From Vulcanimicrobiota bacterium (GTDB taxonomy: Bacteria > Vulcanimicrobiota > Xenobia > Xenobiales > JADMJV01), in the NCBI GenBank assembly GCA_050250895.1, contig JBFWNU010000001.1, positions 1,934,884-1,998,883 of the forward strand: 64,000 nucleotides of DNA, in the 5' to 3' direction. This document shows, in pieces, positions 13,794 through 32,804 of the stretch. The position numbers were made by a program, and so were the translations under genes. The notes under the pieces were generated by a model, which had not been told where the DNA came from, searched no databases, and saw nothing but the letters and a program-made list of their open reading frames with translations. The first letter of the stretch is position 1; every line of letters starts with the position of its first letter.

Positions 13794-14688
13794 GGCAAAT
13801 CTCGTCCTTGTTCCTTTGCAGTAAGCGAATCACGAACTCTCGATGGCACGTAGCTATTCGTGAGGACGGAATCTGATTTACTATCGACGTGAATTTTTCG
13901 GTGCTCACATCACCGATGCAACCGCGCCAATGCCGAACGTCCTCGGGCCAAAGCCCCTTCGCCTCGGCAAGCGCTGCGATCGGCGAGATGGGTTTTTGAC
14001 TTCCGCTCGCAGCGTAGAAAGCCGACTTCGCTCGCGTGGCGTAACCCTCAGGGGTGCGATTCTGGTCGTTTGTTGCGAGCCTTTCCCTCACTGCTTCCTC
14101 CTGAAGCTCACGGCCCAAGCTTGACGCATGATCGTAGCTTGGGGCCAGCAGGTAGCTCCCATCTGAAAGCTCTATTACTCCCCAGTTTTCGTGGTGCCGA
14201 TCCGTGTTACCGATCCAGGCATCCAAAGCGAGTATTCCTGTGAAAGCGCGGCTCCAGGACATTTCTCCCCATCCACGGAGGCTGGCCACTTTAGCAAGTG
14301 CTTTGCCGGCAGCTTCCACGGTATGTTCGTGGACTCCCCGGAGCTGGGCCCTTGGATAGGCCGGGTCAATGCCGAATAGCAGCTCATTGCCGTGGTGAAG
14401 ATGTCCGTGGCGCGGGACAAAGCTGGTGGAGATGGTCCCTTTCTTTCCTTTGAACTCGGCCAAGTCAATATGGGCGTGACTAACCCCGAGCAGCCCGCCG
14501 AGCTCCGCTCCGAGCTTTTCGGACCAGTCTTCTCCGGTGTTTGGCCGTGCGTATTTGAACAGCACTTGTCTCCTTTTCTGGTTCGGCTCCTCGATATAAT
14601 ACCAGAACTTTGACTTGGTCCCGAGATGCTCACTGAAGATCTCTACATTAGGTGGGACAATTTCTATCCCGAATTTCGACTCAGGCAC
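13771..14688 (-). CDS. HipA/CtkA-family Ser/Thr kinase
   Basis: GTKSK, LFK..GEDWSE, DAWIGNTDRHHENWG, LAPSYDHASSL. Confidence 0.85.
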   Translation of the reverse strand: MPESKFGIEIVPPNVEIFSEHLGTKSKFWYYIEEPNQKRRQVLFKYARPNTGEDWSEKLGAELGGLLGVSHAHIDLAEFKGKKGTISTSFVPRHGHLHHGNELLFGIDPAYPRAQLRGVHEHTVEAAGKALAKVASLRGWGEMSWSRAFTGILALDAWIGNTDRHHENWGVIELSDGSYLLAPSYDHASSLGRELQEEAVRERLATNDQNRTPEGYATRAKSAFYAASGSQKPISPIAALAEAKGLWPEDVRHWRGCIGDVSTEKFTSIVNQIPSSRIATCHREFVIRLLQRNKDEICRGRPSED

Positions 14689-14736: not shown

Positions 14737-14822
14737 AAAAGAAGAGAGAACCGCACGGCTGCGCGGTTCTCTCTTGGTGGGTCGTGTAGGATTTGAACCT
14801 ACGACCACCTGATTAAAAGTCA
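14737..14822 (-). repeat. att site: displaced 3' 48 nt of tRNA-Lys plus terminator hairpin
   Basis: Matches 32692-32777 except GGCT vs GACT in hairpin loop. Confidence 0.95.
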
Positions 14823-17366: not shown

Positions 17367-17720
17367 ATGCGCGAAACCGTCACCCAGAAAGCTCACCGTC
17401 TCGTCGACAACTTCCGGGTCGTCCTGTTGGACAACCAGCCCGGCCTGGTCACCGCTGAGGTCATCGGCGACCACAGCACCTACACGGTGCGGTTTCGCCC
17501 CCACGGCGCCTTCTGCGGCTGCAAGTGGTTCCAGATGAAGGGCCACATCAAGCCCTGCAGCCACATCCTGGCCACCCGTCGGGCGATGGACGAGCCCGAG
17601 AGCCAGGAGCCGGTCAAGCGGCTGGCCGAGGCCCTACGGGCCAACCTGCCGGCCAAGAAGCCGCCCGTCGCGGTCACCGAGACGGAAGCCGACCTGCAGG
17701 CGCTCTTCAACTTCCGCTAG
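17367..17720 (+). CDS. SWIM zinc-finger protein
   Basis: TYTV...FCGC...PCSHILA (CxC-x-CxH); RBS GGAGG. Confidence 0.8.
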   Translation: MRETVTQKAHRLVDNFRVVLLDNQPGLVTAEVIGDHSTYTVRFRPHGAFCGCKWFQMKGHIKPCSHILATRRAMDEPESQEPVKRLAEALRANLPAKKPPVAVTETEADLQALFNFR

Positions 17721-17821
17721 CGACCGGGCCCGCAAGGGCCCAACCCCCTCGAGCCTCCTGTTTTCGAACCGTGAGGGCCCCGGCCCGGGTGGAGGCTCGT
17801 TTCTATTTCAGGAGGATTGCT

Positions 17822-18412
17822 ATGCTGCTCACCACCGCTCGCAAGCGTGAAATCGAAGCCACCGTCGAGGCCCTGCAGGCCCGTCACGGTGACCCGTCGG
17901 CCATCCCCGCCACCTACCTGGAGGAGGTGGTTAGAGCGGTGGGTTACCAGCTGGTCGACGCCGACCTGCCCGCGGGGGTGGCCGGCTGCTGCTACCCGCG
18001 GAGCCAGCGCATCTTGCTGAACCGCGACCTGGGCTCCATCCTGACCTACGACCGGGCCCCTCAGTTCCGCCTGGCCACACTGGCCCACGAGCTGGGTCAC
18101 GCGGTTCTGCACGAGCAGCTCATTTTGACCGGCCAGGCTCCAGCTGCAGTTATCGAGCCCGAGGCCCAGCACTTCGCGGCCGCGTTCCTGGTGCCCCGTC
18201 ACCTGGTCCTGGCGCGGCCCGAGGGGGCTCAGCTACTTCGAGCTCGTCGCGCGCGGTTCCGGTGGTCGTCGGGGCGTGTCTGGCGGAGCGTCCACCGACT
18301 GGCCGAGGTGTTTCAGGTGACCTCAACGCTGATGGCGTGGCGCCTCGCTGAACTTGGGGTGGTCGATGCTTGCGAGAAGCGGCCCTGTCGCTTGGTGCTT
18401 GCGGTTTGCTAA
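17822..18412 (+). CDS. ImmA/IrrE (M78) metallo-endopeptidase
   Basis: TLAHELGH and EPEAQHFAAAFLVP; RBS AGGAGG. Confidence 0.85.
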   Translation: MLLTTARKREIEATVEALQARHGDPSAIPATYLEEVVRAVGYQLVDADLPAGVAGCCYPRSQRILLNRDLGSILTYDRAPQFRLATLAHELGHAVLHEQLILTGQAPAAVIEPEAQHFAAAFLVPRHLVLARPEGAQLLRARRARFRWSSGRVWRSVHRLAEVFQVTSTLMAWRLAELGVVDACEKRPCRLVLAVC

Positions 18413-18472: not shown

Positions 18473-19732
18473 GTGATGAACATACGAGACATCGAGAATG
18501 CGTTCCAACCGGCAATAGAGGTCAAGGACCCGAAACGTTTCGCGGGTAGGAAGTCCTACGTGCAAGACGCATATCGGGCGCTTCTCTCTGAGGGAACGAA
18601 TATTGCGGTAGTTGGAAACAGAGGAATCGGAAAGTCTTCCCTTGCCCGCCAAATCGTGAGTATGGCGTCTGGACATGACGACCTTCTCAAAAAGCTGTCG
18701 ATTGACACAGACGCCCAGGCACCTGACTTCCTGGCAACCTATTTCGCGTGTGGCAACAGCGTTAGAACACTCGGCGATCTCCTAAACAGCTTATTGACGG
18801 ATAGCGACGCGTTGGGATCTTGGATCTATGACATTCCCAGCACAAAGACCATCATCGAGAAATACGCCCCAAAATTCAACGCCGGTTTCGCTTCCTTGGG
18901 GGGTGAGAAGTCTACGTCGACGACTTCCTCGAAGGCCATTCAACAACACGACGTCGAGTCGGTTTTTACCAATGTCGTTCGAGCCCTAGTCCAAGAATGT
19001 GTCGCTACCGACGGCCTGATAATCGTGGTCGATGAATTTGACCAAATCAAAGACCCGACTGGATTCGCATCCTTCCTAAAGTCCCTGGCGACGAACGTGC
19101 CTAAGGTTCGGTTTTGCATCGTTGGCGTGGCCCAGGACATTCAACAGCTGATGAAGGAACATGCCTCCGCCGACCGACTATTTTCGGGCTCGGTGCTGAC
19201 ACTTCCGCCGATGAATCCTGAGGAACTCACCGAGATTATCGAAATCGCCGAGTCCTCGATCAAGGGTAGCATTGTGTTCGACGAGAGTGCACGCCGAACG
19301 TTGGTCAAATTAGCCCAAGGACACCCTTACATGATTCACCTGATCGGAAAGGATGCTCTCAAGCAAGCTTTCCTAAAGAAAGACGAGACAATCACGCAGG
19401 CAGACATAGAAAGTGCGCTCCGAGGCATAGCCGAGAGGGGGACAGACCCAGTCTTAGAGGGTCGATACAAGAAGGCTGTCGCGTCATCACAGCATAGAGA
19501 GATAGTTCTTCGAGCGATGGCAAACTCCGTTTCTGGAGACGACGGGGAGATTCAGACCACCGCGGCATATCAACAGGCGTTGACTGAAGGAGTAGAAAAT
19601 TCCAGTCAATACGTAGGGCACTTGACGACTGAACAGTTCGGAGAGGAACTCGTGAAAGTCAGGGAGCGCTACTATCGTTTTCGGGATTCGCTCTTTCGAA
19701 CATACGTAACGCTTCGCCCACCGATCTTTTAA
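18473..19732 (+). CDS. Stand-alone AAA+/STAND-like ATPase
   Basis: FAGR, Walker A GNRGIGKS, Walker B IIVVDEFD, GHP motif; lower GC. Confidence 0.8.
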   Translation: MMNIRDIENAFQPAIEVKDPKRFAGRKSYVQDAYRALLSEGTNIAVVGNRGIGKSSLARQIVSMASGHDDLLKKLSIDTDAQAPDFLATYFACGNSVRTLGDLLNSLLTDSDALGSWIYDIPSTKTIIEKYAPKFNAGFASLGGEKSTSTTSSKAIQQHDVESVFTNVVRALVQECVATDGLIIVVDEFDQIKDPTGFASFLKSLATNVPKVRFCIVGVAQDIQQLMKEHASADRLFSGSVLTLPPMNPEELTEIIEIAESSIKGSIVFDESARRTLVKLAQGHPYMIHLIGKDALKQAFLKKDETITQADIESALRGIAERGTDPVLEGRYKKAVASSQHREIVLRAMANSVSGDDGEIQTTAAYQQALTEGVENSSQYVGHLTTEQFGEELVKVRERYYRFRDSLFRTYVTLRPPIF

Positions 19733-19802: not shown

Positions 19803-21569
19803 TTAGCCCTCGGAGAATAGACGGCCTTGTTGATGTCGAGGCGCTTTCACCTGTAGCGGTGGCTTTTTGCTCCACCTCGGTAGTTTCAACGGTGCCTGAA
19901 CTTCCTTGCCTGAGAGCAGGTCGGCCACCGTCAGTATCTGTAGAGTAGGATAGCGGTCATTCCCCACGGGTGTGTAAAACCCCGCGGATGCTGCCTCTTT
20001 TACCATCGGCTTAGATGGTTCTTGGAGTGTTATCAGGACCCCGATTGGGGTCTTGCCGCGTTTGTTTTCGCGCTCGATCACACCGCGCAGGTCGCGCACG
20101 TCGCGTGAGGTCACCTTGCCGCTCTTGACCGAATACACAATGGCTTTGTCATCACCGGTTCCAGGCTCTTTGAAGAAGCCTCGTCCGTCGATTCCCTGGT
20201 CTGCACCCTTCTTTTGTTGGTCCCGGGTGACTTTGGCGCCCACCAGGCCTAACGCCCACCATTGGAACTGGTAACGATCTTCGGCGGCGAGAACCTTTGC
20301 GCTCTCCAGGTCTTTGGGTTCACCCAAAACTTTGTAGGGAGCCAGTGAGTCGGGGAAAGCCTCCTCGATACGATGCCGAATCAGGCTCACCGCCAGGTGG
20401 GTGATGTCAATTCCTATCCACCTGCGCTCCAAGTGCTCGGCAGCGGCTACTGCGGTGCCGCAGCCACAAAACGGGTCTAGCACGATGCCTTCGGGTGGGC
20501 AAGCCGAGGTGATAATGCGGGCGAGCAGTCCGAGGGGCTTCTGAGTCGGATAGCCGAGCCGCTCACCAGACGTTGGCCCTAGCCACGACACGTCTTCGTC
20601 GATTCCGTGCTCCAAGTCCCCGTAGTAGTAGCCTTTCGTGTATGGCTGATACGCCCAAATGTCCTGATATGGGGTTCCAAGGTCAGAGTCTTCTTCGAGA
20701 TAGACCTTGATCATCGGAATGCCGCCAGGCTTGGCCGGTAGCTTGATGTAACCGGCATCGAGCAAGGCATCAAGCTTCTTTCTGGTTGGCAAACTGTTGT
20801 CTATCCCAAGACGCTCGCAAACCTTTCGAGGAGGCGCCCACGCTCGATTGCGCTCGGTGGGATTGAAGCCCTTCCATGGCTTACCTGAGTCGCCGTAACG
20901 CGGGCCCGGTCCGCAGGGGTCGTTAAGTTTATACTGGCCATACTCGTCACGATACTTGAACCGTTCATCCACGTGAGCTTGAGGGAGGGGCATCTTCTGG
21001 GGCTCAAAGTAGCAATTGTCTGACTTGGCGTAGAAGAATATCGTGTCGTGAATCTGCCCGAAACGCTTGGTGTCGTTGTGGGTGTTGGTCCGCCGCCAGA
21101 TAATCTCGTTGCGGAAGTTCTGTGGGCCGAAGATGGCATCCAAGAGGAGCTTCAAGTAATGACTCGATGTGGGATCGCAGTGCAAAAATAGGCTTCCACG
21201 GGCTTTCAGGACTCTGTGCATCTCCACCAGTCGCGGCGCCATCATCGTTAGATAGGCCATGGCATCGCTTCGACCTAGATAATCTAGCAATGCTGAGAGC
21301 AACTGTCTGAGCTTCGACTCGCTCTGATCCATCATCTCTTCAAACGCGTGCTCGGCCTCCACCCCCCAACGCCAGGTATCTTCGAAAGCGGTTATTTGAG
21401 CGGTCGAAGTCTCGCCGCTGTGCTCCCGAAACAGCACATTGAAATCTGCCTTCTTGTTGAATGGCGGGTCGAGATAGATGAGGTCTATTGATTCAGCGTC
21501 TACATACTCGCGAAGAATGACGAGGTTATCGCCGATATACAGCTGATTGCACCAGTTTTGAAAAAGCAT
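19803..21569 (-). CDS. Beta-class N6/N4 DNA methyltransferase fused to C-terminal Mrr-like PD-(D/E)xK domain
   Basis: IYLDPPFN, YPTQKP, DPFCGCGT; C-terminal ADQGIDG..YSVKSG..VRDLRG. Confidence 0.85.
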   Translation of the reverse strand: MLFQNWCNQLYIGDNLVILREYVDAESIDLIYLDPPFNKKADFNVLFREHSGETSTAQITAFEDTWRWGVEAEHAFEEMMDQSESKLRQLLSALLDYLGRSDAMAYLTMMAPRLVEMHRVLKARGSLFLHCDPTSSHYLKLLLDAIFGPQNFRNEIIWRRTNTHNDTKRFGQIHDTIFFYAKSDNCYFEPQKMPLPQAHVDERFKYRDEYGQYKLNDPCGPGPRYGDSGKPWKGFNPTERNRAWAPPRKVCERLGIDNSLPTRKKLDALLDAGYIKLPAKPGGIPMIKVYLEEDSDLGTPYQDIWAYQPYTKGYYYGDLEHGIDEDVSWLGPTSGERLGYPTQKPLGLLARIITSACPPEGIVLDPFCGCGTAVAAAEHLERRWIGIDITHLAVSLIRHRIEEAFPDSLAPYKVLGEPKDLESAKVLAAEDRYQFQWWALGLVGAKVTRDQQKKGADQGIDGRGFFKEPGTGDDKAIVYSVKSGKVTSRDVRDLRGVIERENKRGKTPIGVLITLQEPSKPMVKEAASAGFYTPVGNDRYPTLQILTVADLLSGKEVQAPLKLPRWSKKPPLQVKAPRHQQGRLFSEG

Positions 21570-22007
21570 CAAACCCCCTGGGCGAAAACATGTTCGATGC
21601 CTTCGCAGTAGTCCCTCCTGGCGGTCTGGGCAGAGGGGCTTACTTTGGAAACGGGGGCGGTTTTGGGTAAACGTCGGCCCAGAAGCCCGCAATCAAAAGG
21701 CGCTTCCATCTCGGCTAACAGAAAAAGGTGGTTATTTATGTGCAGAAATTGCAGAAAAAGGGCCCGAGGATGCCGAGAAATACTCCAAGAAACCGTCACT
21801 TTTGCGCGATATTCGGCCAAAATCGTCGGAGAATGCTCCCAGTATCCACCGCTGTGCGAAACGGCCGGCGGCCCGGGAAGCACAAAGCCACCGTCACGAG
21901 CCATTAGGGGGTGGCGTGCTTCGTTCGGGTGGCCGACAACCGTTCGGTCAGGTCCCAGACCATCCCTGTCCCGGACCGTCACCGGGAAGGCGTCCAGTTA
22001 GCGAGCT

Positions 22008-22667
22008 TCACAAAGTGCCGGGGAACTTGATTCCCTCGGGGGTCAGGTTGCGGGCGCGGTAGGCGGTCTTGAAGGCGTTCCATTCGTCTTCGTCGACCTC
22101 AACGAACTCATCCAGCTCCCATATGGGCTCCGTGCCGGGCTTGACCCCCTGGAGGGCCGCCAGGAAGGTTTGGTGGTGCCACCGGTCCCGCTGGGCCATC
22201 TTGAAGTAGCGGACCAGCAGACGGGCCGGCCAGGCCGTCAGGAGCGTGCCCGGGTCGGGCCCGTGATAGGTGGCGCTCACCAGGGCTGCCATCTCCAGCC
22301 AGGCGGCCTCCTCGTGGTCAGCGTGGCGCGGCCGTCGTGACTTCGACACTTTGCCCCGCTGGTAGGTCTGAAACAGCTCGGCCAGGCCGTTCAGCTGGTC
22401 CTGCAGGTCGAACAGCTGGGTCGTCTGGTCGAGGTCGAGTTCAGCGGCCAGCTGGCGGGCGTCCGGGCTTGCGCGCAGGATGAAAGCGACCAGCTGGCGG
22501 CGGGCCAGTTCCTCTCTGCCGGCCGTCAGGGCGTCTCGATAGCGGCCCCGGAGCTGCAAGAACTCCCTTAGCTCCATGGCCGTGGGTTCGCGGAGCGTGG
22601 CCACCACGTGGCCGGCGGCCAGCGGCAGAACGACTTCTTCGGACCGGAATAGCTCGAATGGCCTCAT
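22008..22667 (-). CDS. Tail assembly chaperone, fused gpGT-like
   Basis: N-half resembles 26293-26823; GK junction; C-half GPDPGTLLTAWP..FLAALQGVK resembles T-domain; ATGA-coupled to TMP. Confidence 0.6.
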   Translation of the reverse strand: MRPFELFRSEEVVLPLAAGHVVATLREPTAMELREFLQLRGRYRDALTAGREELARRQLVAFILRASPDARQLAAELDLDQTTQLFDLQDQLNGLAELFQTYQRGKVSKSRRPRHADHEEAAWLEMAALVSATYHGPDPGTLLTAWPARLLVRYFKMAQRDRWHHQTFLAALQGVKPGTEPIWELDEFVEVDEDEWNAFKTAYRARNLTPEGIKFPGTL

Positions 22668-25600
22668 GAACCCAGCCTCCCGGCTCCGCCGTCGCGCAGG
22701 CTGCCCCGCTTGACCTGCTTGGCAATCTCTTGGGCCACCTGGTTGACCAGCTCTTCAATCTTCGGCGTAACGGTGACGTGAGGGCCGAAGGTGGTGTGAA
22801 ACGTCTGGTTGATGGTGGTCGGAGCCGACTTCGGTGCGCCACCCGAGTCCAATGGCGACCCCTTTGGCGTGGCGGCCTTCCGCTGGGCCTGGCCGATGTC
22901 CTCGAAGGTGGGCACCTGCGGAGCCGTCTGAGCGGCGGCCGCCCGCAGACTGTCGACCACGCCGGCGCGGTCAAGCTTGTCACTGAGTCGCTCCCGAAAC
23001 AGCTCCTGCGCCCTCTGCAGCCGCGGCGTGTCCCGCTCGACGGCCGCGGTGCGTCGGCTCTCGTCGATTTGGGAGACCAACTCCAGGCCCAGCTGGTTCG
23101 AGCGCCGGAAAGAATCGGCCCGGCGGGCCCGGTCGTCAGTTGCCTTCGCCCGCAGGTCGGCCAAGCTCGGGGCTGTGCTGCCGCCGGTCAGGGCCTGGTC
23201 AGGTGTCAGCCGCGGGTCGGCCGTCGGGGTTGGCCCTTCAGGCGCTCCTGCAGGAGGTTGCAGGCTTGCAGTTGCTGTTTGCAGGCCGGTTTGCGCGTTC
23301 TGCCGGGCTACGCCTGCGGCCTGGTCCTTCTCCTGCTCCGCGAGCTCACGCTTCCGGTTGATGGTCCCCTCGCGCAGGATGGCTTCGCGCTTGAGGCGTG
23401 CCTTCTGCTCGGCCAGCTCGCGGTCTTTGCCGGCGGCCAGGTCGGCTTGCAGCTCCCGGTCGATGGCCTCGAGGCGAACCTTCTGCAGCTCGAGCCGCTT
23501 GGCCATCAGCTGGTCTTCGACGGCTTCGCCGGCTTGCAGGCGGGTTTGAAGGAGGTCGATTTCTTGTTGAACGGCTTGAATCTGCAGGGCGGCCACCTCA
23601 TCGGCCTGCGCCCGCCGCTCGTTGGTGATTTGCTGTTCGAGGCCCAGCCGCTCGCGGGCCAGGCCACGAAGTTCCTGGTCGGCCGTCGCGGTGTCGATGC
23701 TGCCACGGCGCTGGGCGGACTTGATGAGGGCTATGGCCCGGGCGTTCGCCTCAAGGCGCTGGGTGGCGTTGGTGGCCCCGGCAGAGAAGTCGGCAACCTG
23801 CTGTTTGAGCTGGTTGAAGTTGTCGGCCAGGGCCTTCGTGGCCTGCTGGCCCCGCTCACCGGTCAGCCGGTCTGTGAACTCCTTCAGCTGCTCGCTCAAC
23901 TCGGGGTAGTCGTCCAGCAGCTGGCGGTTCTTGTCTCGCCACTTCTGCAGGCTGGTCAAGACGAGGTCGATTTGGTCGACCACCTCGGCGGCCGTCGCGC
24001 CCTGCTGGTTCTTGACCTCGGTCACCGCTTGTGTGGCGGCTTTGAGCTGGCCTTCCACCAGCTTCTTGGCCGTTTCCTCGGCGTCTTTGGCCTCTTGGGC
24101 CCTGACGGCCTTGATTTTCTCGCGAATCTGAATCGCATCATCGAGGCCGGCCTGGCCGAGACGCTTGGCGGCCGCCAGGGCGCGCTCTAGCTCGGCGATC
24201 TCTTCCGAGGTCGACACTTCGCGCAGGGACTTCTGCTCCCGAAGGCTCCGCTCGACGGCGTCGACCTCTTCTTTGGCCTTCTGCTGGGTCTTGTCCGTGA
24301 TAGAGGACTGCAGCTGTTCCCGGGTCTTGAGCAGGCCGAGCTGCTCCTGAATGACAGCGCGTTGCTGCTCGGTCACCTGGTCGGCACCTTCCAACAGGGC
24401 GCGCTGCAAGCCCTCGAAGGAGGTCGGGAGGGCGGCCTTCTTCAGCTTTTCGTTGTTCCGGGCTAGCTGGGCATCGAGTTCGGAGAGGGCCCCCTTCAGG
24501 TTGTCCACCGAACCGGTGGCGCCAGCGAAGTTGAGGTAGTCTTTGAGCCGGGCCGTCTCCTCTGTCAGGGCCTTCAGGTCCGGGCTGATGGCCGCGACCT
24601 TCTGCTGAGCCTGGCGCAGAGCCGTCGCCTCCTGGCCCAGGTCGCTGAACTCCTGCTGGAGGAGCTGTAAAGCTTCGTTTGCTTCGTCTACGCTCACATA
24701 CCAGCTGTCAGGGAACAGCGTCTTCAGCTCGTCGGTGACTTGGATGGTGGAATCCGTGATGGGCGGGGCTTTGGCGATGGCCTCTTGCAGGGCCTGAATC
24801 TGCCTGCGGCGCTCGTCGGCAGCTTCCCGGTTCTCGGCCAGCTTTTTCTTCAGCTCGTCGAGCGTATAGCCGAGGGCCACCAGCCGGGCCGCGAGCCTGC
24901 CGGCGGGGATGTTGTCAAGCGCCTTGCCGAACTGCTCGGCGAACTTGCTGGCGTCGTTGGTGCGCTCCACGAAGACGCCCTGCTCTTTGGCCAGGTCGTT
25001 GACCACCGAGGTGATTGACCGAAGGGTCGCGCGGGAATCCTGGATGGTCCGGGCCTGCTCGCCAATCGCCTGGCCGAGCCGCTCCTGGGTTCGAGCATAG
25101 TTCAGGGTGGCCAGGTTGGCGATGGCCAAGGCAGCGACCAGCGGCCCGGCGATGGTGGTGGTCAAGATGGTCATGACCCCGCCCACCGTGCCGGCCACCG
25201 CACCGAGGCCCTTCAGGGCGCTGCCGGTCACGACGGCCGCCCGGCCAGCTGCTGGGAAGCCGTTGACCGCGGCAAGGGCCAACTGCTGGTTCATCGCGGC
25301 CAGGCCGGCGGTGGCAGTGACGGCGCCCCCGCCGAGCACCAGCAGACCGGCGGTGGCCACCGCTCCGAAGGTGGCTATCTGCCGGAAGGTGTCGGGCACG
25401 GAACCGGCAACCTCAACCATCTTCGTGAAGATTTGCGCACCGACTTGGACCGCCGGCGCCAGGTCGTCGCCGAACTTCGCGGCGAAGTTCGTGACGGCAT
25501 CGGCCGCGTTCGAGAGGCTGCCTTGCAGGGTCTTGGCTTGACGGTCGATAGCCCCCCCGAAACGAACTTGGATGAGCCGCAGGAGGGCCTGCCGGGCCTT

Positions 25601-26293
25601 CTCGAGGTCCTCGCCGGCCACGGTCGCGACGCTGCCCGTCTTGGTGAGGACGGCGCCGTATTTCTTCAGGTCCTGGCTCGACACTCCGTAGGTGTTGCGG
25701 AGTGACTCGAAGCCCTCGAGGCTGCCGGACAGCGCCTTCCCTACGACAAGGGCCGTCTCGTTGAGGTTGCGGCCCATCCCCGCGGCCAGGTCGGCCACGC
25801 GGGGAAGGACTTCCTGGCTCCGCTGCCCGTAGACCTCGAGTTGAACAGTGGCTTCGACAATGCCCCGCACATCAAACGGTGTACGAGCTGCCAGCTGCTT
25901 GGCTGCCTCGAGGGTCTTTTGGGCCCTGGCCGACGAACCCTGAACGGTCTCGAGTCTGCCCTGCAGTTGCTCGAACTCGCTGGAGATGCGAACGGCGTTG
26001 GCCAGGATGAGGGCCAGCCCGGCACCGGCCGCAGCGGCGGCCACGCCGAAGCCCTTGCCCAGCTCGGTGACCTGGCCTTGGAGCTCCCGATGGTCGTTCT
26101 TGACATGTTCCAGCTCGTTGCTGAGTCCGCGGAAGCGCTCGGTCGCGCCCCTTCCGACCTGGTCCAATTGGACGTTCGCCTCTCGGGCTGCGCGTCCCAC
26201 CCTGTCGATGCCCTTCTCGAGGTCATCAAGGGTCTTCCTGAAAGAGGGGTCTGTCCGAGCGAGAACCTTGAAGATAAGAGCGGTTTCTGGCAT
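22664..26293 (-). CDS. Phage tail tape measure protein (1209 aa)
   Basis: SEFEQLQGRLETVQGSSARAQKTL..AARTPFDVRGIVEATVQL..LPRVADLAAG; TLQGSLSNAAD; Ala/Gly TM-like stretch; long coiled coil; INQTF C-terminus. Confidence 0.9.
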   Translation of the reverse strand: MPETALIFKVLARTDPSFRKTLDDLEKGIDRVGRAAREANVQLDQVGRGATERFRGLSNELEHVKNDHRELQGQVTELGKGFGVAAAAAGAGLALILANAVRISSEFEQLQGRLETVQGSSARAQKTLEAAKQLAARTPFDVRGIVEATVQLEVYGQRSQEVLPRVADLAAGMGRNLNETALVVGKALSGSLEGFESLRNTYGVSSQDLKKYGAVLTKTGSVATVAGEDLEKARQALLRLIQVRFGGAIDRQAKTLQGSLSNAADAVTNFAAKFGDDLAPAVQVGAQIFTKMVEVAGSVPDTFRQIATFGAVATAGLLVLGGGAVTATAGLAAMNQQLALAAVNGFPAAGRAAVVTGSALKGLGAVAGTVGGVMTILTTTIAGPLVAALAIANLATLNYARTQERLGQAIGEQARTIQDSRATLRSITSVVNDLAKEQGVFVERTNDASKFAEQFGKALDNIPAGRLAARLVALGYTLDELKKKLAENREAADERRRQIQALQEAIAKAPPITDSTIQVTDELKTLFPDSWYVSVDEANEALQLLQQEFSDLGQEATALRQAQQKVAAISPDLKALTEETARLKDYLNFAGATGSVDNLKGALSELDAQLARNNEKLKKAALPTSFEGLQRALLEGADQVTEQQRAVIQEQLGLLKTREQLQSSITDKTQQKAKEEVDAVERSLREQKSLREVSTSEEIAELERALAAAKRLGQAGLDDAIQIREKIKAVRAQEAKDAEETAKKLVEGQLKAATQAVTEVKNQQGATAAEVVDQIDLVLTSLQKWRDKNRQLLDDYPELSEQLKEFTDRLTGERGQQATKALADNFNQLKQQVADFSAGATNATQRLEANARAIALIKSAQRRGSIDTATADQELRGLARERLGLEQQITNERRAQADEVAALQIQAVQQEIDLLQTRLQAGEAVEDQLMAKRLELQKVRLEAIDRELQADLAAGKDRELAEQKARLKREAILREGTINRKRELAEQEKDQAAGVARQNAQTGLQTATASLQPPAGAPEGPTPTADPRLTPDQALTGGSTAPSLADLRAKATDDRARRADSFRRSNQLGLELVSQIDESRRTAAVERDTPRLQRAQELFRERLSDKLDRAGVVDSLRAAAAQTAPQVPTFEDIGQAQRKAATPKGSPLDSGGAPKSAPTTINQTFHTTFGPHVTVTPKIEELVNQVAQEIAKQVKRGSLRDGGAGRLGS

Positions 26294-26823
26294 CAGTCCT
26301 CCTGCATGATGCGGTCGGTCGCCTGCTTGACCGCGGCTTGCTCGTAGAGTCGAAGGCCGTGCTCGAAGATCTCGTCGATCTGGTTGACCCGGTCTTGAAG
26401 GGCCAGCACAGCTTGAACGGTCTCCAGGCTACACTGGCGCAGCAGGTCGGGGTCGGCCGGTGGCCCGCCGTCGGTCGGGTGGCGGAGCGCCTGCAGCAGC
26501 AATCCGGTCAGGTTCGACAGCATCCTTTCGACGGCGTCGGCCATCGTCGGGGCCTCGGTGCCCATGTCCTGGATGTCAGCCAGAGCAGATCGAGCTGCAT
26601 CCTCCTGGGCCTGCAGGTAGACCGGCAGCTGGTCGAGCGGCCAGGCCGTCACGGCGAAGGTCCGGCTCGAGCCGTCGGTCAGCTCGAGCACGAACTCTTC
26701 TCGGCGAGGGCGCAGGATGAGGCGCCCTTCCTCGTCGCGGGGTAGGTCCAACTCGGGCCGCGGCCGGGCCTGCACGGCGAAGTTGGCAAAGAGGCCAACG
26801 AGGGGGGAGAGGGAGGTATTCAT
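26293..26823 (-). CDS. Tail assembly chaperone, gpG-like
   Basis: Directly upstream of TMP (TGATG overlap); acidic 176-aa protein; paralogous to 22008-22667. Confidence 0.6.
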   Translation of the reverse strand: MNTSLSPLVGLFANFAVQARPRPELDLPRDEEGRLILRPRREEFVLELTDGSSRTFAVTAWPLDQLPVYLQAQEDAARSALADIQDMGTEAPTMADAVERMLSNLTGLLLQALRHPTDGGPPADPDLLRQCSLETVQAVLALQDRVNQIDEIFEHGLRLYEQAAVKQATDRIMQED

Positions 26824-27133: not shown

Positions 27134-27523
27134 CTAGAACGGGATGTCGTCAATCCCGAGGCCGTCGCTTTGCCTCGGTGGTTGGGGCTGCCGGCGAGGT
27201 TCCTGGGCCGGCGGGGCCTGCTGGGGTGGCGCCGCCTGCAGGTAGACCTGCAAGTCCGGGTCGCGGTCGTCGTTCTTCTGCTGGTTGGCGAAGACCAGCA
27301 CGCGAGCGCCGCCGAGGCGGCCAACGTAGTAGCGGGTTCCGTTCTTGGATTCGCGGGCCCAGAGGCCGCAGAGCGGGACCTTCGCGGGATAGGATTCGCT
27401 CATCGAGTTGCCTTTCTGCCCGCTTGGCACGGGCTTGGGTTTGGTGGGTGGAGTGGGGGTGGGTTGATTTAGTGGTCGGTAGAAGTCGATAGCAGCCTGA
27501 CGGGCCGCTCGTGAACGGTTCAT
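27134..27523 (-). CDS. Small SSB-like/DUF736-like protein with DDIPF tail (alternative start 27403)
   Basis: GLWARESKNGTRYYVGRL..DDRDPDLQVY; Q/P linker; C-terminal DDIPF. Confidence 0.65.
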   Translation of the reverse strand: MNRSRAARQAAIDFYRPLNQPTPTPPTKPKPVPSGQKGNSMSESYPAKVPLCGLWARESKNGTRYYVGRLGGARVLVFANQQKNDDRDPDLQVYLQAAPPQQAPPAQEPRRQPQPPRQSDGLGIDDIPF

Positions 27524-27771
27524 AGTTCCTCCAGGTGGGGTAGGATGGCCCGGCTGGCCGCCAGGTTCCACGGCGCGGGCTTCAGGGCGCAGGGCTTGGC
27601 CACGAAGTACTCGCGACCGCCGTAGGTGAAGGTCTCACCCCAAAAAGCTAGCTCGACATCCTCCACCAGCCTGGCCCGCCCGATGAGCTGGCCTTCAACG
27701 ACAAGGTCGACCAGGGCGACCACGGGCGGGGCTGGGATTTCTGGATACCAGCAAACAAAAGACACCTTCAT
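27520..27771 (-). CDS. Hypothetical protein
   Basis: ATGA overlaps on both sides. Confidence 0.6.
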   Translation of the reverse strand: MKVSFVCWYPEIPAPPVVALVDLVVEGQLIGRARLVEDVELAFWGETFTYGGREYFVAKPCALKPAPWNLAASRAILPHLEEL

Positions 27772-28619
27772 GCCGCCCCCCAACAGTCGACCGAAAGCGC
27801 CTGGTCGGCGAGGTCGAAGAGTCGCTTCAGGGGGCAGCACCTGCCTAGCGAGCCAGTTTCCATCTCCTCCTGGACGCGAGCGAAGGCTTCTCTGATAGCT
27901 TGCTGGAGTTTGTGGGGTGGTAGGGGGAGGTCTAGGAAGTCTTGTTTTCGCTTTTGCACATACCGCGGGGCCCGGCTCATCTTGCTGGGGGCCAGACGGG
28001 TAAGCAGCTTCTGAAGCCAGGAATCGAAGAGAATCTTCCCACCTCCCCCCTCTTGGGGGGTAAGGGGGGTACTGTCTTTATGTCTTTCCTTGTCTTTAGA
28101 CCCCTCGGAAAGGCTTTTGCCAGAAGGCTCAGACGGGGGTGAAAGGGGGGCCTGGAGGGAACCCTTTGTGGGGGCCTGGAGGGTACCCTTTCTGTGCCCT
28201 CCGGTATCCCCTTTCTCATGCGAAAGGGTTCCCGGAGCTACCCCCTTTTCTTGGTCTGAAAGGGGTCCCTCCGGTATCCCCTTTTCATCGGGTCGGGCCG
28301 TACGACTCGAACCCTTGGGGGTGTTGGGTGGTGGTGGCCAGTTCAAGCTGAGTTCACTCTTGGCGCCGCGGTGGGTGCCTTGAGCGTGTCGGTGAAGTAG
28401 GCCGGCGCTTGTCAGGCTCCGAAGAGCTGTGCGAATCACCTTCTTGGTGTGGCCCGTCAATGTCATCAGCTCAGCGACAGTGATACGCACCCGCTCAACC
28501 CTCCATCCCCAGGTTTCGCGCTCGATGATGTCCAGAACGTCGCGCTCTGAGCCACGCAGGCCCTGTTTCGCAAGGTGCCGCGGCCAATCGTTCGGCCGTT
28601 GATACCAACCGTGACTCAT
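27768..28619 (-). CDS. Phage replication initiator (lambda O-like N-terminal wHTH)
   Basis: LRGSERDVLDIIERETWGW...ITVAELMTLTG..VIRTALRSLTSAGLL; internal iteron-like repeats; coupled to DnaB. Confidence 0.8.
   Translation of the reverse strand: MSHGWYQRPNDWPRHLAKQGLRGSERDVLDIIERETWGWRVERVRITVAELMTLTGHTKKVIRTALRSLTSAGLLHRHAQGTHRGAKSELSLNWPPPPNTPKGSSRTARPDEKGIPEGPLSDQEKGVAPGTLSHEKGDTGGHRKGTLQAPTKGSLQAPLSPPSEPSGKSLSEGSKDKERHKDSTPLTPQEGGGGKILFDSWLQKLLTRLAPSKMSRAPRYVQKRKQDFLDLPLPPHKLQQAIREAFARVQEEMETGSLGRCCPLKRLFDLADQALSVDCWGAA
28141..28316. repeat. Iteron-like repeats; putative replication origin
   Basis: About six imperfect units ending in CCCTT(T), several of form AAAGGG-Nx-CCCTTT; GGGGCCTGGAGGGWACCCTTT x2; CCCTCCGGTATCCCCTTT x2. 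Confidence 0.65.
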
Positions 28620-30010
28620 TGGAGGTCGCCTCCGAAGTCAAGACTGTCCCAGCTCTCGTCTGGGACGGATTCGCAAACCTGCCGGGGCACAAGAGCCGGC
28701 TCAAACCGGGTGAGTCGTCCCACCCATCGAAGCCGGATGTTGACGAGCTCGCCGTTTCGGCGCTTGCGCACGTAGAGCCACGCCTCTTCTGGGTCGGCGT
28801 TCTTGCTGAACATCACCGGCCGATGGAGCATCAAGACCAGGTCGGCATCCTGTTCCAGGTGGCCCGACTCGCGAAGGTCGCTCAGCTGAGGGGTCTTGTC
28901 TGGGCGCCTTGTCACGTCGCGGCTCAGCTGACACAGCACGATGACGGCCAGGCCGGTGCGCCGAGATAAGGCCTGCAGGACCCTGCTCGCCTCGCTGGTC
29001 TGCTCATAGTCGCGCCGGCCGAGGTGGCCCAGGTGGTCGATGACCACCGCCTTGGCGTCGGGGTGCCGAATCACGAATCGCTCGATTTGACCCAGCACCG
29101 TGGCCAGCTCCTGGCCCGCGGGGCCCAGCTGGTCGAGGATGTAGAGCGGGCACCGGTCGCGCAGGCGCTCTTCCAGCTCGAGCGCCACGCCCGCTGAAGG
29201 CACGACCTCGCGGAGCTGGGCGACGTAGCGGCCGGCCAGTTCAGCGCCGGGCATCTCGCCGGACACGTAGAGCGTTGGCCCATGTTGGCCCGCGATGTGC
29301 TTTGCAAGAGCGCCCGTCAAAGCCGACTTGCCCATCGAGGGGCGTCCGGCGATGATGGTCATCGCGCCCAGCGGCAGGCCGCCGTTCTCATCGAGCGCCG
29401 GGAGCCCGGTAGTCAGGCCCGTCTTTGTGTCGGCGTTCTCCTGCAGTTCTCGGGCAAGCTCGGCCATGGCGTCGGCAATATGAACCGGCTCATGCCGAAG
29501 ACCGCGCCCTGTGGCCCTGACCAGGTCGTCAGCGACCCTAATGGCCAGGGCCGTCGCGTCAGCGTCAGGCGACCGCAGTTCGCTCAGCAAGTGCCGGGCA
29601 GCGCGCTCTATCTCGCGCCGCTGGGCCTGCTTGACCACCAGGTCGACCAGGGCGAAGGCCGCCGAGTCGGTTGAGTCTACATCGGTGGCCAGTACGGCCT
29701 GAAGCGCCTCTGGGTCGAGGTGCTCGGCCAGCAGGTGAGGGTGAACCCGGTGGCCTCGCTTGACCAGCTCCCGCAGGCCGCGATAGCCGCGCCTGGCGGC
29801 CAGGTCCGCGAAGTCTGATTCTACGGCGACCCGCAGAAGGTAGGCGGTCCGGTTCTCCGACTCGAGGGCGCAACGGATGGCGCGCCGTTCGGTGAGGGCG
29901 GCCGGGGACGTTTGCGCGTTGTCTTTGGATGGCGTAGTATGGTGGTGACGCCGTTTGTCACCCTTGCCCCCCTGGTCGCCAGCCTTCGGGGCTCTTTCAT
30001 TTTCGGGCAT
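28616..30010 (-). CDS. DnaB-like replicative helicase
   Basis: IIAGRPSMGKS, VIDHL, LCQLSR, LSDLRESGHLEQDAD, KRRNG. Confidence 0.9.
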   Translation of the reverse strand: MPENERAPKAGDQGGKGDKRRHHHTTPSKDNAQTSPAALTERRAIRCALESENRTAYLLRVAVESDFADLAARRGYRGLRELVKRGHRVHPHLLAEHLDPEALQAVLATDVDSTDSAAFALVDLVVKQAQRREIERAARHLLSELRSPDADATALAIRVADDLVRATGRGLRHEPVHIADAMAELARELQENADTKTGLTTGLPALDENGGLPLGAMTIIAGRPSMGKSALTGALAKHIAGQHGPTLYVSGEMPGAELAGRYVAQLREVVPSAGVALELEERLRDRCPLYILDQLGPAGQELATVLGQIERFVIRHPDAKAVVIDHLGHLGRRDYEQTSEASRVLQALSRRTGLAVIVLCQLSRDVTRRPDKTPQLSDLRESGHLEQDADLVLMLHRPVMFSKNADPEEAWLYVRKRRNGELVNIRLRWVGRLTRFEPALVPRQVCESVPDESWDSLDFGGDLQ

Positions 30011-30102: not shown

Positions 30103-30285
30103 TCAATCGCCTTCGAGTAGCCGCCGCAACCGACACAAAGGCACCAGCAGGCGCCGTCCAACTCGGATTGTGGGGATGTCCCCCCGACGGGCTGCAGCAT
30201 AGCTAGACTGGCGGCCTAGACCAAGCATTCGGCCGGCCTTTGGCACAGAAATGGCCAGGGGCTTCTCTTCGGGCTTGGCATTCAC
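30103..30285 (-). CDS. Excisionase/AlpA-like HTH
   Basis: ISVPKAGRMLGLGRQSSYAAARRGDIPTIRVGRRLLVP; GTGA overlap with cro. Confidence 0.85.
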   Translation of the reverse strand: MNAKPEEKPLAISVPKAGRMLGLGRQSSYAAARRGDIPTIRVGRRLLVPLCRLRRLLEGD

Positions 30286-30509
30286 GCCGAGGCCGCTTCC
30301 TGCTCGGTGGCCACCACCAGGGTTTCTACGGGTATGCCGGTGACCTTCGAAAGTCGCATGAGCACTCCCACGCTCACACCGATCACGCCCCCCATCTGCT
30401 GGTAAAAGGTGTCTTTGGTCACCCCGATTTTGTTGGCAAGCCAAACAAAGGTTCGACCTTCTCGCGCCTTCCAGCGCCGAAGCTCGCTCTGGTTGAGGCG
30501 ATACTGCAT
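30282..30509 (-). CDS. Cro-like XRE HTH regulator
   Basis: LANKIGVTKDTFYQ..LMRLSKVTGIPVETL; AGGAGG upstream (start may be TTG 30515). Confidence 0.75.
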   Translation of the reverse strand: MQYRLNQSELRRWKAREGRTFVWLANKIGVTKDTFYQQMGGVIGVSVGVLMRLSKVTGIPVETLVVATEQEAASA

Positions 30510-30545
30510 GTCCAAAGCTTCAAGCCTCCTCTCTCTTGATTTAAA

Positions 30546-30631
30546 AAGTTTCAAACTTAGTTTACCATTGTCTGGAGGTTTGTCAATCTGATATGGTAAA
30601 CTTGTTTGTATCATAAGTTTGGAACTTAGTT
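30546..30631. promoter_or_regulatory. Divergent promoter/operator switch
   Basis: AAGTTT(CA/GG)AACTTAGTT at 30546 and 30615; inverted AGTTTACCAT/ATGGTAAACT; minus-strand TTGACA-16-TAAACT. Confidence 0.7.
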
Positions 30632-30635
30632 AGAT

Positions 30636-31229
30636 ATGAACTTCAAACAAAGTTTTGGGCGGCGTTTACGCTCTGCCCGCAATGAGCGCGGGCTTTCGCA
30701 ACGCGAATTAGCCGAGCTTCTGGGGGTGAGTGCGGCCGTGGTTTCGGATTGGGAGGTCGCCAAGTCGAGTCCTCAGCTCGAACGGCTGGAGCAAATAGCT
30801 TCTCACCTGCAGAAGTCACCGGCCTGGTTTTTTGTCGAGGAGGACGCCGGTTCAAGGGGTGTTGAGGTCGCGGCAAGCTCGCCAGAGATGGTCGACCTTT
30901 TGAACAGCGCAGCAGATTTCTGTGAACGCGAAGGTCAACGGGCGAAACTCCACGCCGAGGCTTTCGCCTGCTTTCAAAGATACTTCGAAGCCGTCGGTTC
31001 GATGACTCTTGCAAGCCTGTCGCAGGAGCAAAAGGAGGCTTTGAGTTTCACGACCACCCAGAGGCTATTCGACGCGGGTCAAATGGAACCGGAGGTGATG
31101 GAGTTCGCCGACGATGGCCCGGGAGTGGTGATTACTGGGAGTGACCTGCTAAACACTATTGAGGCGCACCTTGCGGGCTCATTGAGGGAGTTGCGTCGTC
31201 TTGACGCAGGCCGTGGGGGTCAAGCATGA
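30636..31229 (+). CDS. XRE-family repressor (Stl/ImmR-like, no S24 domain evident)
   Basis: FGRRLRSARNERGLSQRELAELLGVSAAVVSDWE HTH. Confidence 0.85.
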   Translation: MNFKQSFGRRLRSARNERGLSQRELAELLGVSAAVVSDWEVAKSSPQLERLEQIASHLQKSPAWFFVEEDAGSRGVEVAASSPEMVDLLNSAADFCEREGQRAKLHAEAFACFQRYFEAVGSMTLASLSQEQKEALSFTTTQRLFDAGQMEPEVMEFADDGPGVVITGSDLLNTIEAHLAGSLRELRRLDAGRGGQA

Positions 31230-32413
31230 GAGGGCACATCCAGAAGCGGGGCAACGGTTACCGGGTCGAGATTCACATCGGCTACGACGAGCAAGGCAAG
31301 CGGATTCGCCACCGCCAGACACTCTCGACCAAGAAGGCGGCCGAGAAGTACATGCGTGCCAAGCTCGACGAGCTGGAGACCGAAGGCGGCATCCGCGCGA
31401 AGAGCCTCGAGACACTGGAAGCCTATCTCAAGCGGTGGCTAGAGGTGTCGGCCGCGCCCCGCGTCAGGCAGCGCACGCTGGAGGACTACACCGAGAAGCT
31501 TCGTGGCTACGTCTTCGAAACGCCGCTCGGCCGCAAGCCGCTCGCCACGGTCACGCCGAGCGACATCCAGGAGCTTTACGCATCGGTGCAGGCCCGAGTA
31601 AAGGCGTCAGGCCGTGGCAACGGCGTGACCTCGGTGAAGCGCCTTCACGCGGTGCTGAGGAGCGCCATTAACCAGGCGGTGAAGTGGCGTCTGCTCACTC
31701 AGAACGTCTGCCTGTTTGTCGACCTACCGAAACAAAATCGGGCCGATGACCCGTATGGCCGCCAGCACAAAAAGGAGGTCCTTCAGACAGAGGATTTCCC
31801 GGCCTTCATCCAGGCCGCCCTACAGGAAGAGCGCCTCGGGGCAATGTGGGTTCTGGCGCTGCAGACCGGCCTGCGCCCTGGTGAGTATCTGGGTCTTCAG
31901 TGGGCCGACTTCGGACCGAACCTTCGCCAGTTCACCGTCAACCGCGCCCTGGTCCGGGTGCGCACCGAGGACGGACAGGGTTGGCGGTTCGAGGAGCCCA
32001 AGACCCGCCGGAGCCGGCGAACGGTGGTGCTCGACACCGAGGTCATCTTCTTGCTCAAGCAGCATCGAACCCAGCAGAACGAGGAGCGTTTGGCCGCGGG
32101 TTCGGCCTACGAGGACCACGACCTGGTGTTCTGCAACGAGATCGGCGGGCCGCTCCACCAGCACAACCTATCTCAGAGGGTTTTCCCTCGCATCATCGAG
32201 CGGGCCGGCCTGTCGGGCAAGCTCACGCCTTACAGTTTGCGCCACAGCACGGCGACCCACTTGCTCCGGGCTCGCGAGAACCTCAAGATCGTTTCCGAGC
32301 TGCTCGGCCATAGCTCCATCAGCCTAACGGCCGATGTATACTCCCACGTGGCCCCGGACATGCTGGAAGGGGCAGCCAGCAAAATGGGAAGCGCGATGTT
32401 CGGCATGCAGTGA
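31226..32413 (+). CDS. int: Tyrosine integrase with N-terminal arm-binding domain
   Basis: TGLRPGE, PKT, YSLRHS, LGHS, DVYSH; adjacent to tRNA att. Confidence 0.95.
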   Translation: MRGHIQKRGNGYRVEIHIGYDEQGKRIRHRQTLSTKKAAEKYMRAKLDELETEGGIRAKSLETLEAYLKRWLEVSAAPRVRQRTLEDYTEKLRGYVFETPLGRKPLATVTPSDIQELYASVQARVKASGRGNGVTSVKRLHAVLRSAINQAVKWRLLTQNVCLFVDLPKQNRADDPYGRQHKKEVLQTEDFPAFIQAALQEERLGAMWVLALQTGLRPGEYLGLQWADFGPNLRQFTVNRALVRVRTEDGQGWRFEEPKTRRSRRTVVLDTEVIFLLKQHRTQQNEERLAAGSAYEDHDLVFCNEIGGPLHQHNLSQRVFPRIIERAGLSGKLTPYSLRHSTATHLLRARENLKIVSELLGHSSISLTADVYSHVAPDMLEGAASKMGSAMFGMQ

Positions 32414-32691: not shown

Positions 32692-32730
32692 AAAAGAAGA
32701 GAGAACCGCACGACTGCGCGGTTCTCTCTT
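32692..32730 (-). terminator. Intrinsic terminator after tRNA operon (duplicated at 14736-14775)
   Basis: AAGAGAGAACCGC...GCGGTTCTCTCTT hairpin followed by U-run on minus strand. Confidence 0.8.
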
Positions 32731-32804
32731 GGTGGGTCGTGTAGGATTTGAACCTACGACCACCTGATTAAAAGTCAGATGCTCTACCCCTGAGCTAACG
32801 ACCC
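32730..32804 (-). tRNA. tRNA-Lys (UUU), integration target
   Basis: GGGTCGTTAGCTCAG...CTGA CT TTT AA TCAG...GGTTCAAATCC..ACCA. Confidence 0.95.

Follow-up and report, generated by a model that had tools for sequence, protein, structure and literature searches.

Predicted tail chaperones G and GT are encoded by separate genes on either side of the tape measure gene in a likely phage satellite of a Vulcanimicrobiota bacterium

In a window of 64,000 nucleotides (G000:C1:1934884-1998883) from the genome of a Vulcanimicrobiota bacterium, we found a tape measure protein (TMP) gene flanked by two genes that are predicted to encode tail assembly chaperones (TACs): a chaperone G upstream (P0001) and, downstream, a G domain fused in frame to a T domain (GT; P0002). 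The G/GT frameshift is among the most conserved decoding tricks of tailed phages, and here its two products appear to be specified by two genes. P0001, the TMP (P0003) and P0002 sit inside a 17,955-bp element that ends in an 86-bp direct repeat and is likely an integrated phage satellite (Table 1). We hypothesise that this island, which carries neither tail-tube nor capsid genes, uses its own G to coat its own TMP and a scarcer GT to recruit the tube of a helper phage, giving a chimeric tail; we put the probability of this reading at roughly 0.6.

Table 1. Features of the element and their positions in the window, with matches to Pfam (PF) and PHROGs (phrog) where found.
Feature	Position	Strand	Details
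Tail assembly chaperone G (P0001, 176 amino acids, aa), predicted	26293..26823	minus	no slippery heptamer; no T region behind
Full-length TMP (P0003, 1209 aa)	22664..26293	minus	hydrophobic segments; PF20155 1e-6 (below curated cut-off)
In-frame GT chaperone (P0002, 219 aa), predicted	22008..22667	minus	G domain ~1-104, linker 105-118, T domain ~116-190
GGGGCAAAG (R-G-K)	22349..22357	minus	in the G-T linker of P0002; like a slippery site plus one base; not conserved
Left attachment (att) site	14737..14822		86-bp direct repeat with tRNA-Lys 3' part and terminator-like hairpin; 99% identical to 32692-32777, spacing 17,955
Right att site	32692..32777		overlaps tRNA-Lys(TTT) at 32730-32804, minus strand
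Tyrosine integrase	31226..32413	plus	PF00589 8e-24; phrog_1 2e-68
CI-like helix-turn-helix (HTH) repressor	30636..31229	plus	PF01381 1.5e-16
Cro-like HTH regulator, divergent from repressor	30282..30614	minus	PF13560 2.7e-5
Excisionase-like HTH_17 protein	30103..30444	minus	PF12728 1.7e-4; phrog_66 0.019; real start probably later
DnaB-like replicative helicase	28616..30010	minus	PF03796 2.8e-47
Lambda-O-like replication initiator	27768..28619	minus	PF04492 2.5e-6; phrog_678 2.6e-7
Cargo: N6/N4 DNA methyltransferase fused to Mrr-like domain	19803..21692	minus	PF01555 1e-39; PF04471 9e-4
Cargo: STAND-type NTPase	18473..19732	plus	PF20703 1e-12
Cargo: ImmA/IrrE-type metallopeptidase	17525..18412	plus	PF06114 5e-10; real start probably later

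An earlier, sequence-only reading of this DNA had taken the two open reading frames (ORFs) on either side of the TMP gene for paralogues. The three minus-strand ORFs and the peptide motifs it quoted are where it placed them, and the two motif pairs prove little on their own, because the direct similarity of P0001 and P0002 is not significant (BLASTP E 0.027); a profile of P0002 and its homologue P0012 reached P0001 with a probability of 25% and an E-value of 8e-4. Evidence from outside the element came from two profiles, A1 (G) and A2 (T), built solely from six prophage tail clusters of relatives, which were found through a TMP search (relatives in 16 of 41 genomes) and which run tail tube, G, T in the −1 frame, and TMP. 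Prophage loci L040, L041 and L043, with different chaperone families, were excluded from these profiles and from the heptamer count given below. In hhalign comparisons A1 matched P0001 (probability 95.6%, E 1.3e-8) and, weakly, residues 23-100 of P0002 (62%, E 7.5e-5), and A2 matched residues 116-189 of P0002 (97.2%, E 4.3e-11) and gave no match to P0001. None of 1000 shuffled sequences attained the real score for A1 against P0001 (37.9 bits; best shuffle 9.6), for A2 against the C-terminal half of P0002 (56.1 bits; best shuffle 8.7) or, with a thin margin, for A1 against its N-terminal half (12.9 bits; best shuffle 10.8); for the G part of P0012, 2 of 1000 shuffles did. When the whole genome was scanned in six frames, P0001 was the sole find of the G profile (1.2e-7; next best E 0.29), as was P0002 for the T profile (1.2e-13). 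On these comparisons P0001 is a predicted chaperone G and P0002 a predicted G fused in frame to T, so that the claimed relationship holds in so far as both ORFs are G-type by profiles from outside, and falls short in their direct match.

General libraries contributed less. Two of the ten rows of alignment A3 matched the TAC family phrog_344 (best 3.8e-5), and neither P0001 nor P0002 had a significant match in Pfam or PHROGs, with no T4-like PHROG at E<=1; word-index homologue searches returned only P0001 and P0002 themselves, and three proteins for the GT alignment. P0003 matched nine TMP PHROGs (best 2.7e-9). The C-terminus of P0002 bears a PxGxKFPG(T/M)L motif. The genes are tightly packed, the TGA of P0001 overlapping the TMP ATG (TGATG) and the ATG of P0002 overlapping the TMP stop (ATGA). 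P0001 has about 30 N-terminal residues more than prophage G proteins (26736-26823, minus strand), and its real start may be later.

The same gene order, G-TMP-GT, was also found in G020:C67, an element of 18.3 kb whose att repeat measures 58 bp, and in the metagenome locus L072. In G020:C67 an integrase, a primase, TerS and a head-protease-like gene are followed by G, TMP and in-frame GT, of 127, 1121 and 218 aa, and by a resolvase. In the sister satellite (L025:9662-10996) a gene resembling a head-maturation protease (phrog_976, 3.7e-15) and TerS stand directly before G, and there is no capsid gene. In L072, seen without its ends, G, TMP and in-frame GT measure 153, 1280 and 237 aa and are accompanied by a primase, two integrases and a resolvase; the 17 ORFs scanned gave no capsid or tube match, and the two tyrosine integrase genes lie in tandem between primase and G (L072:3176-5322). 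Pattern scans of viral_contigs and genome_contigs found no further element with this order, and one of them gave a phage, L087, to which we return below.

These elements differ from the prophages at the slippery site. An in-frame XXXYYYZ heptamer (GGGAAAC, AAAAAAA or GGGAAAA) was present at one homologous site in all seven prophage-type G ORFs tested, a set that includes two 94% identical sequences and L064, a remnant without adjoining TMP, and in none of the three satellite G ORFs. Slippage at the prophage heptamers would be expected from the open −1 frame and from lambda. Neither P0001 nor P0002 contains such a heptamer, and since the stop codon of P0001 overlaps the TMP start there is no room for T behind it. 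The downstream gene, in turn, runs in frame into its extra domain. Across 22010-22392 a related variant, represented by a metagenome contig, shows 17 substitutions and no gaps (one sample, depth about 5), and P0012 is an in-frame homologue, 43-45% identical to P0002; the in-frame junction is therefore genuine and no assembly slip. Among the 18 listed differences of the variant GT gene, 11 changed codons are synonymous and 4 non-synonymous, and between codons 106 and 177 all nine changes are synonymous, a pattern that shows purifying selection on the predicted T domain of P0002. Thus the absence of a slippery site upstream, the in-frame extension downstream and the replacement of frameshifting by separate genes, all put forward in the sequence-only reading, are borne out.

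Its proposal of how this came about, by fixation of a single base at GGGCAAAG in the linker of P0002, was not supported. GGGCAAAG is the product expected from one inserted base in GGGAAAG, and it speaks for the proposal that the pattern is uncommon (111 of 279,930 codon positions), which corresponds to a chance of 0.8% per 20-codon linker, or 2.8% for a wider pattern, both calculated post hoc. As a conserved relic it was rejected: it stands five codons beyond the position that corresponds to the heptamer in L006-type prophages, its Lys codon is AAG and not AAA in the close variant, P0012 has T-K in place of G-K, and the pattern is missing from the GT genes of G020:C67 and L072.

Structure models were in line with the profile assignments. 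AlphaFold2 gave a mean predicted local distance difference test score of 88.5 for residues 30-176 of P0001 and of 81.0 for P0002, and both models consist of a beta-hairpin plus helices, to which P0002 adds a second helical domain after a low-confidence linker (residues 105-118). Against 48,161 chains the P0001 model placed 3fgx first (Z 5.2, root-mean-square deviation (rmsd) 4.8, 89 residues aligned), the HK97 TAC 2ob9 second (Z 5.1, rmsd 5.8, 92 aligned) and 3klu sixth. For the P0002 model 3fgx again came top (Z 6.0, rmsd 4.0, 88 aligned), 2ob9 came third (Z 4.9), and there was a weak fold match to ORF19 of PLE satellites (5ir0, Z 3.9). The chain 3d8l was likewise among the matches listed in these comparisons. 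We take 3fgx, 3klu and 3d8l to be TACs. In BFVD the P0002 model matched the phage N15 'Tail assembly protein GT' over 246 columns (E 5e-3, probability 0.99), and several further TAC entries. The structural comparison thus ranks TACs at or near the top for both ORFs, at Z-scores too low to be significant alone.

The relationships among these genes are not those of a single inherited cassette. In a G-domain tree of 22 rows and 134 columns, in which 11 of 19 branches were open, G and GT of G020:C67 shared a clade with a prophage G (91/92), G and GT of L072 grouped together (88/83) with P0001 as their sister (83/83), and P0002 paired elsewhere with P0012. Neither P0001 nor the G domain of P0002 has the other as its nearest relative (Z 2.4-3.4, versus 14.8 between P0001 and a prophage G), and within the two other elements G and GT reached Z 20.8 and 11.5. 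In the approximately unbiased (AU) test one clade for all satellite GT domains (p 0.0056), another uniting the three satellite G genes (p 0.0003) and a shared origin for all satellite G and GT genes taken together (p 0.003) were rejected; a clade of P0001 with P0002 (p 0.48) and a family joining the window with L072 (p 0.37; a grouping named after the tree was seen) were compatible with the data. In the T tree P0002, P0012, the GT of L072 and P0040 came together (93/96), all sharing the C-terminal PxGxKFPG(T/M)L, and the GT of G020 stayed apart (p 0.0185). Satellite TMPs were dispersed among prophage TMPs, the N-terminus of the L072 TMP being unrelated. From the G, GT, T and TMP trees, it follows that the layout arose at least twice.

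The close relationship of G and GT within each of the two other elements fits local duplication there. In the window, the sequences may reflect either an old duplication or the capture of a ready-made GT, and the latter could apply because phages with a single in-frame GT, such as L087, exist. In-frame GT occurs beyond satellites, in L087 and in L063, and the T profile found 46 proteins among 1.84 billion representatives, 15 of which are 184-240 aa long with a C-terminal T, that is, in-frame GTs (P0007, P0012, P0016, P0032, P0039, P0040, P0042, P0044, P0046 and P0047 being known from protein sequence alone). L063 is a degenerate prophage-like locus whose in-frame GT (L063:7138-7764, minus strand) keeps AAAAAAA at the homologous site and is not followed by a TMP gene; a −1 slip there would stop after six codons and yield G alone, opposite to what happens in lambda, and a homopolymer error could explain it.

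How the trio would work can be sketched from well-studied phages. In lambda the G part, whether free or within GT, binds the TMP and T binds the major tail protein, at a ratio of about 30:1 (PMC5009743), and more frameshifting or more GT lowers the yield (PMC3296357); a TP901-1 mutant that makes only fused GT produces non-infectious particles (PMC4493119). By analogy, G would coat the satellite TMP, and the scarcer GT would bind the tail-tube protein of a helper siphophage through its T domain and link the tube to the satellite TMP. Both forms would be needed, with G in excess, and a separate G would be kept beside a hard-wired GT because, as the TP901-1 mutant suggests, fused GT alone does not yield infectious particles. 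The helper would provide tube, baseplate and head, and the satellite TMP would end in a transducing particle, as in PLE satellites.

Without a frameshift, the G:GT ratio would probably be set by gene order and translational coupling. Stop and start codons along G-TMP-GT overlap or abut in all three elements, which suggests that coupling sets the amounts, and since the GT start lies across the TMP stop, in a structured region, GT output would be tied to TMP output. As weak evidence in itself, the start region of GT folds more strongly than that of G in each case, with GT-versus-G energies of −21.8 versus −5.7, −24.1 versus −18.4 and −9.7 versus −7.3 kcal/mol in the three elements. A bolder proposal, which we hold only tentatively and judge somewhat doubtful, is that tail-ruler satellites of siphophages have repeatedly and independently dismantled the near-universal G/GT frameshift, with G put ahead of their own TMP gene and a hard-wired GT behind it, and that coupling delivers about one GT per ruler. 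If true, a satellite would nucleate helper tube on its own TMP regardless of the frameshifting rates of its host, starving helper tails of tube.

It could also be that GT is chiefly a weapon, which, free of frameshift control, sequesters the helper's tail-tube protein or upsets its G:GT balance and so cuts helper yield, G plus the helper's own GT serving the satellite TMP. Extra GT does lower lambda yield (PMC3296357) and GT-only TP901-1 particles are non-infectious (PMC4493119), satellites often block helper tail assembly (Tai, PMC11364771; Rta, PMC12987554), and in P0002 it is the T domain that is well conserved and the G domain that has drifted. A stoichiometric role nevertheless fits better with a GT that retains a folded G domain and that closes the operon, its start coupled to the TMP stop, in 3/3 elements; moreover, GT is accompanied by G and TMP in all three satellite-like contexts seen. 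We therefore regard a chiefly offensive GT as unlikely, and link and decoy roles can coexist.

Several results weigh against a G that coats the satellite TMP and a scarcer GT that recruits the helper tube. In P0002 the G domain is strongly diverged: its helical hairpin is shorter by about 20 residues, the P-x-D-G motif is gone and the profile score is only 12.9 bits, so that this domain may no longer coat the TMP. In the phage L087 a single in-frame GT lies between tube and TMP on a viral contig (L087:9998-10618; 65% identical to P0049), with no separate G beside it and no heptamer seen, and the rule of G excess may hence not hold for this family. Shine-Dalgarno pairing is stronger for GT than for G in two of the three elements, the window (−10.3 versus −5.6) and L072 (−6.6 versus −5.2), so a low GT output by initiation strength alone does not fit. 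On the structural side, the Z-scores of 3.9-6.0 are low, values of 5-6 falling in the range of unrelated helical chains, and Foldseek found no match in the PDB at E<=0.001, the HK97 TAC ranking eighth with E 0.51. Finally, six of the eight satellite-like TMP elements from the 41-genome search, classed by reading their ORFs, carry no detectable G or GT/T (C8 of this same genome, G002:C2, G006:C69, G009:C10, G018:C25 and G020:C38), and the chaperone pair is thus not required for carrying a TMP.

The TMP-only element in the same genome (G000:C8:243000-260300; L001, L021) encodes a TMP of 1208 aa, one residue shorter than P0003 and 45.6% identical to it over the first 383 aa, and no G or GT; the gene preceding this TMP contains short acidic motifs in repeated copies. 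Chaperones for this TMP could be borrowed from the element in the window or from the helper. Five further TMP-only satellite-like elements were seen in related genomes (L031/L032, L033, L036, L038 and L039), the TMP of L033 being frameshifted; in the tree their TMPs fall at various places between those of prophages, which suggests that this lineage has captured TMPs repeatedly.

The surroundings of the trio support a satellite. From the right end the element reads integrase, repressor, Cro-like gene, excisionase-like gene, DnaB, O-like initiator, three small ORFs, P0001, TMP, P0002 and cargo. It shares with PICI-like satellites a tyrosine integrase, att repeats at a tRNA, a size within 10-20 kb, its own repressor/Cro pair, a xis-like gene, DnaB and RepO, as well as the lack of capsid, portal, large terminase and tail-tube genes: among its ORFs (21 scanned with Pfam, 17 with PHROGs) none was found for capsid, portal, terminase or tail tube. 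An internal set of 18-24-nt repeats in the lambda-O-like gene (28146-28284) probably represents origin iterons. One sigma70-like promoter consensus lies by the Cro-like gene (30586-30559, minus strand), where 0.7 would be expected by chance. A joint from 32169 to 14732 was dropped as a sign of a circular form, since the att repeat fits two places. One small ORF (27134-27404, minus strand), without library match, ends in D-D-I-P-F, an acidic tail that we assume to be typical of single-stranded DNA-binding proteins. Just beyond the left att site, at 13017-14688 (minus strand), lie a HipA-like kinase (PF07804 6e-7) and a neighbour that resembles HIRAN.

Two further explanations bear on these surroundings. 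The trio might be an anti-phage defence that poisons helper tails with a foreign ruler and does not serve the element's own transfer, and the element does carry other defence-like cargo (methyltransferase-Mrr, STAND NTPase); besides, Pfam and PHROGs recognised no TerS or capsid-size gene in the window, where three small unannotated ORFs precede G. Yet the full-length TMP shares its hydrophobic segments and its C-terminal pattern with prophage TMPs, it stands at the end of the replication operon and away from the cargo, the sister element has TerS and a head-protease-like gene beside the trio, and PLE transduction needs the TMP (PMC12987554), all of which makes a purely defensive trio improbable. 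Equally, the lambda-like replication module (O plus DnaB) is one that prophages have, and degenerate prophage-like loci with stray G/T or GT exist in the family (L063, L064), as would be expected if this were a decayed and rearranged prophage with a tail module shuffled by chance into genes that no longer cooperate. Such decay is very improbable given that the att sites at both ends and every core ORF are intact, that no head or tail remnants were found, that the order is identical in three elements which differ in TMPs, G lineages and replication genes, and that GT is under purifying selection. An island that builds chimeric tails with its own G, TMP and GT remains our preferred reading.

Such an island would need a helper, and none resides in this genome, which is 99.6% complete, as judged by Terminase_6N, TerL_ATPase, Phage_capsid and Phage_portal (whose controls gave matches) and by whole-genome searches with a tail-tube profile and with 164 ORFs of the relatives' prophage loci; Portal_Mu also gave no match, in a search whose controls gave none either. 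The prophages closest in their tail genes encode an Ig-like major tail protein (phrog_807), and no sheath was seen in them. A long-tailed siphophage of this family, seen as prophages in relatives and not resident here, is the likely helper; in the candidate family the tube is phrog_807, and a prophage TMP is 35.6% identical to P0003 over 953 aa.

The ingredients of this arrangement have precedents. As in lambda-type phages, a G fold of beta-hairpin and helices, a C-terminal T extension and both forms are encoded, with the G gene immediately upstream of the TMP gene (PMC5009743, PMC3296357, PMC4493119); unlike there, the two forms are two genes without a slippery site, and whereas the lambda-type pair lies between the major tail gene and TMP, GT here follows the TMP and neither element nor genome has a tube gene. 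Some T4-like phages have separate genes for a short TAC and for a long one that fuses it to a downstream part, equally without frameshift (Vladimirov, Gautam, Davidson 2022, Virology 566:9, PMID 34826709, as cited in 10.1101/2023.04.10.536325, PMC10274946). As far as that description goes, those genes belong to a lytic myophage's own tail cluster, whereas here they flank the TMP in a tube-less, satellite-like element with siphophage-like relatives, and the layout arose at least twice.

Among satellites, the PLEs of Vibrio cholerae carry tmp-tac(-bhuB) and place their own TMP in chimeric tails (PMC12987554). Like the element described here they encode their own TMP and TAC and lack tube and capsid genes, but one tac gene is described per PLE, the main text of that report mentions no frameshift, and the helper is the myophage ICP1. 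The present element departs from the PLE core gene set in its lambda-O/DnaB replication genes, and no baseplate-hub gene was seen in it; no sequence relationship to PLE turned up, although no search was aimed at PLE. EPIP satellites of Mycolicibacterium are likewise small integrative satellites with a TMP and no tail-tube genes, and differ in a serine integrase, TerS and head-tail connector genes, the accessible text of PMC12822802 reporting no TAC pair. A satellite TMP gene with G and GT as separate genes on its two sides was not found described in the literature, of which subscription papers were thinly covered. Given the PLE tmp-tac genes and the two-gene TACs of T4-like phages, we regard the arrangement as a new combination and not as a new class.

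Taken at face value, satellite-like elements of this lineage have dropped the frameshift at least twice and converged on G-TMP-GT, which makes them a natural experiment on what can substitute for frameshifting. The uncultured host limits direct testing; the layout nonetheless offers G and GT as separable genes, in which their distinct roles, and a possible inhibition of phages by GT supplied in trans, can be told apart. If the proposed working is right, hijacking of tails by a TMP plus chaperones, which in the literature found has been shown experimentally only for PLEs and their myophage, would extend to siphophage-like tails.

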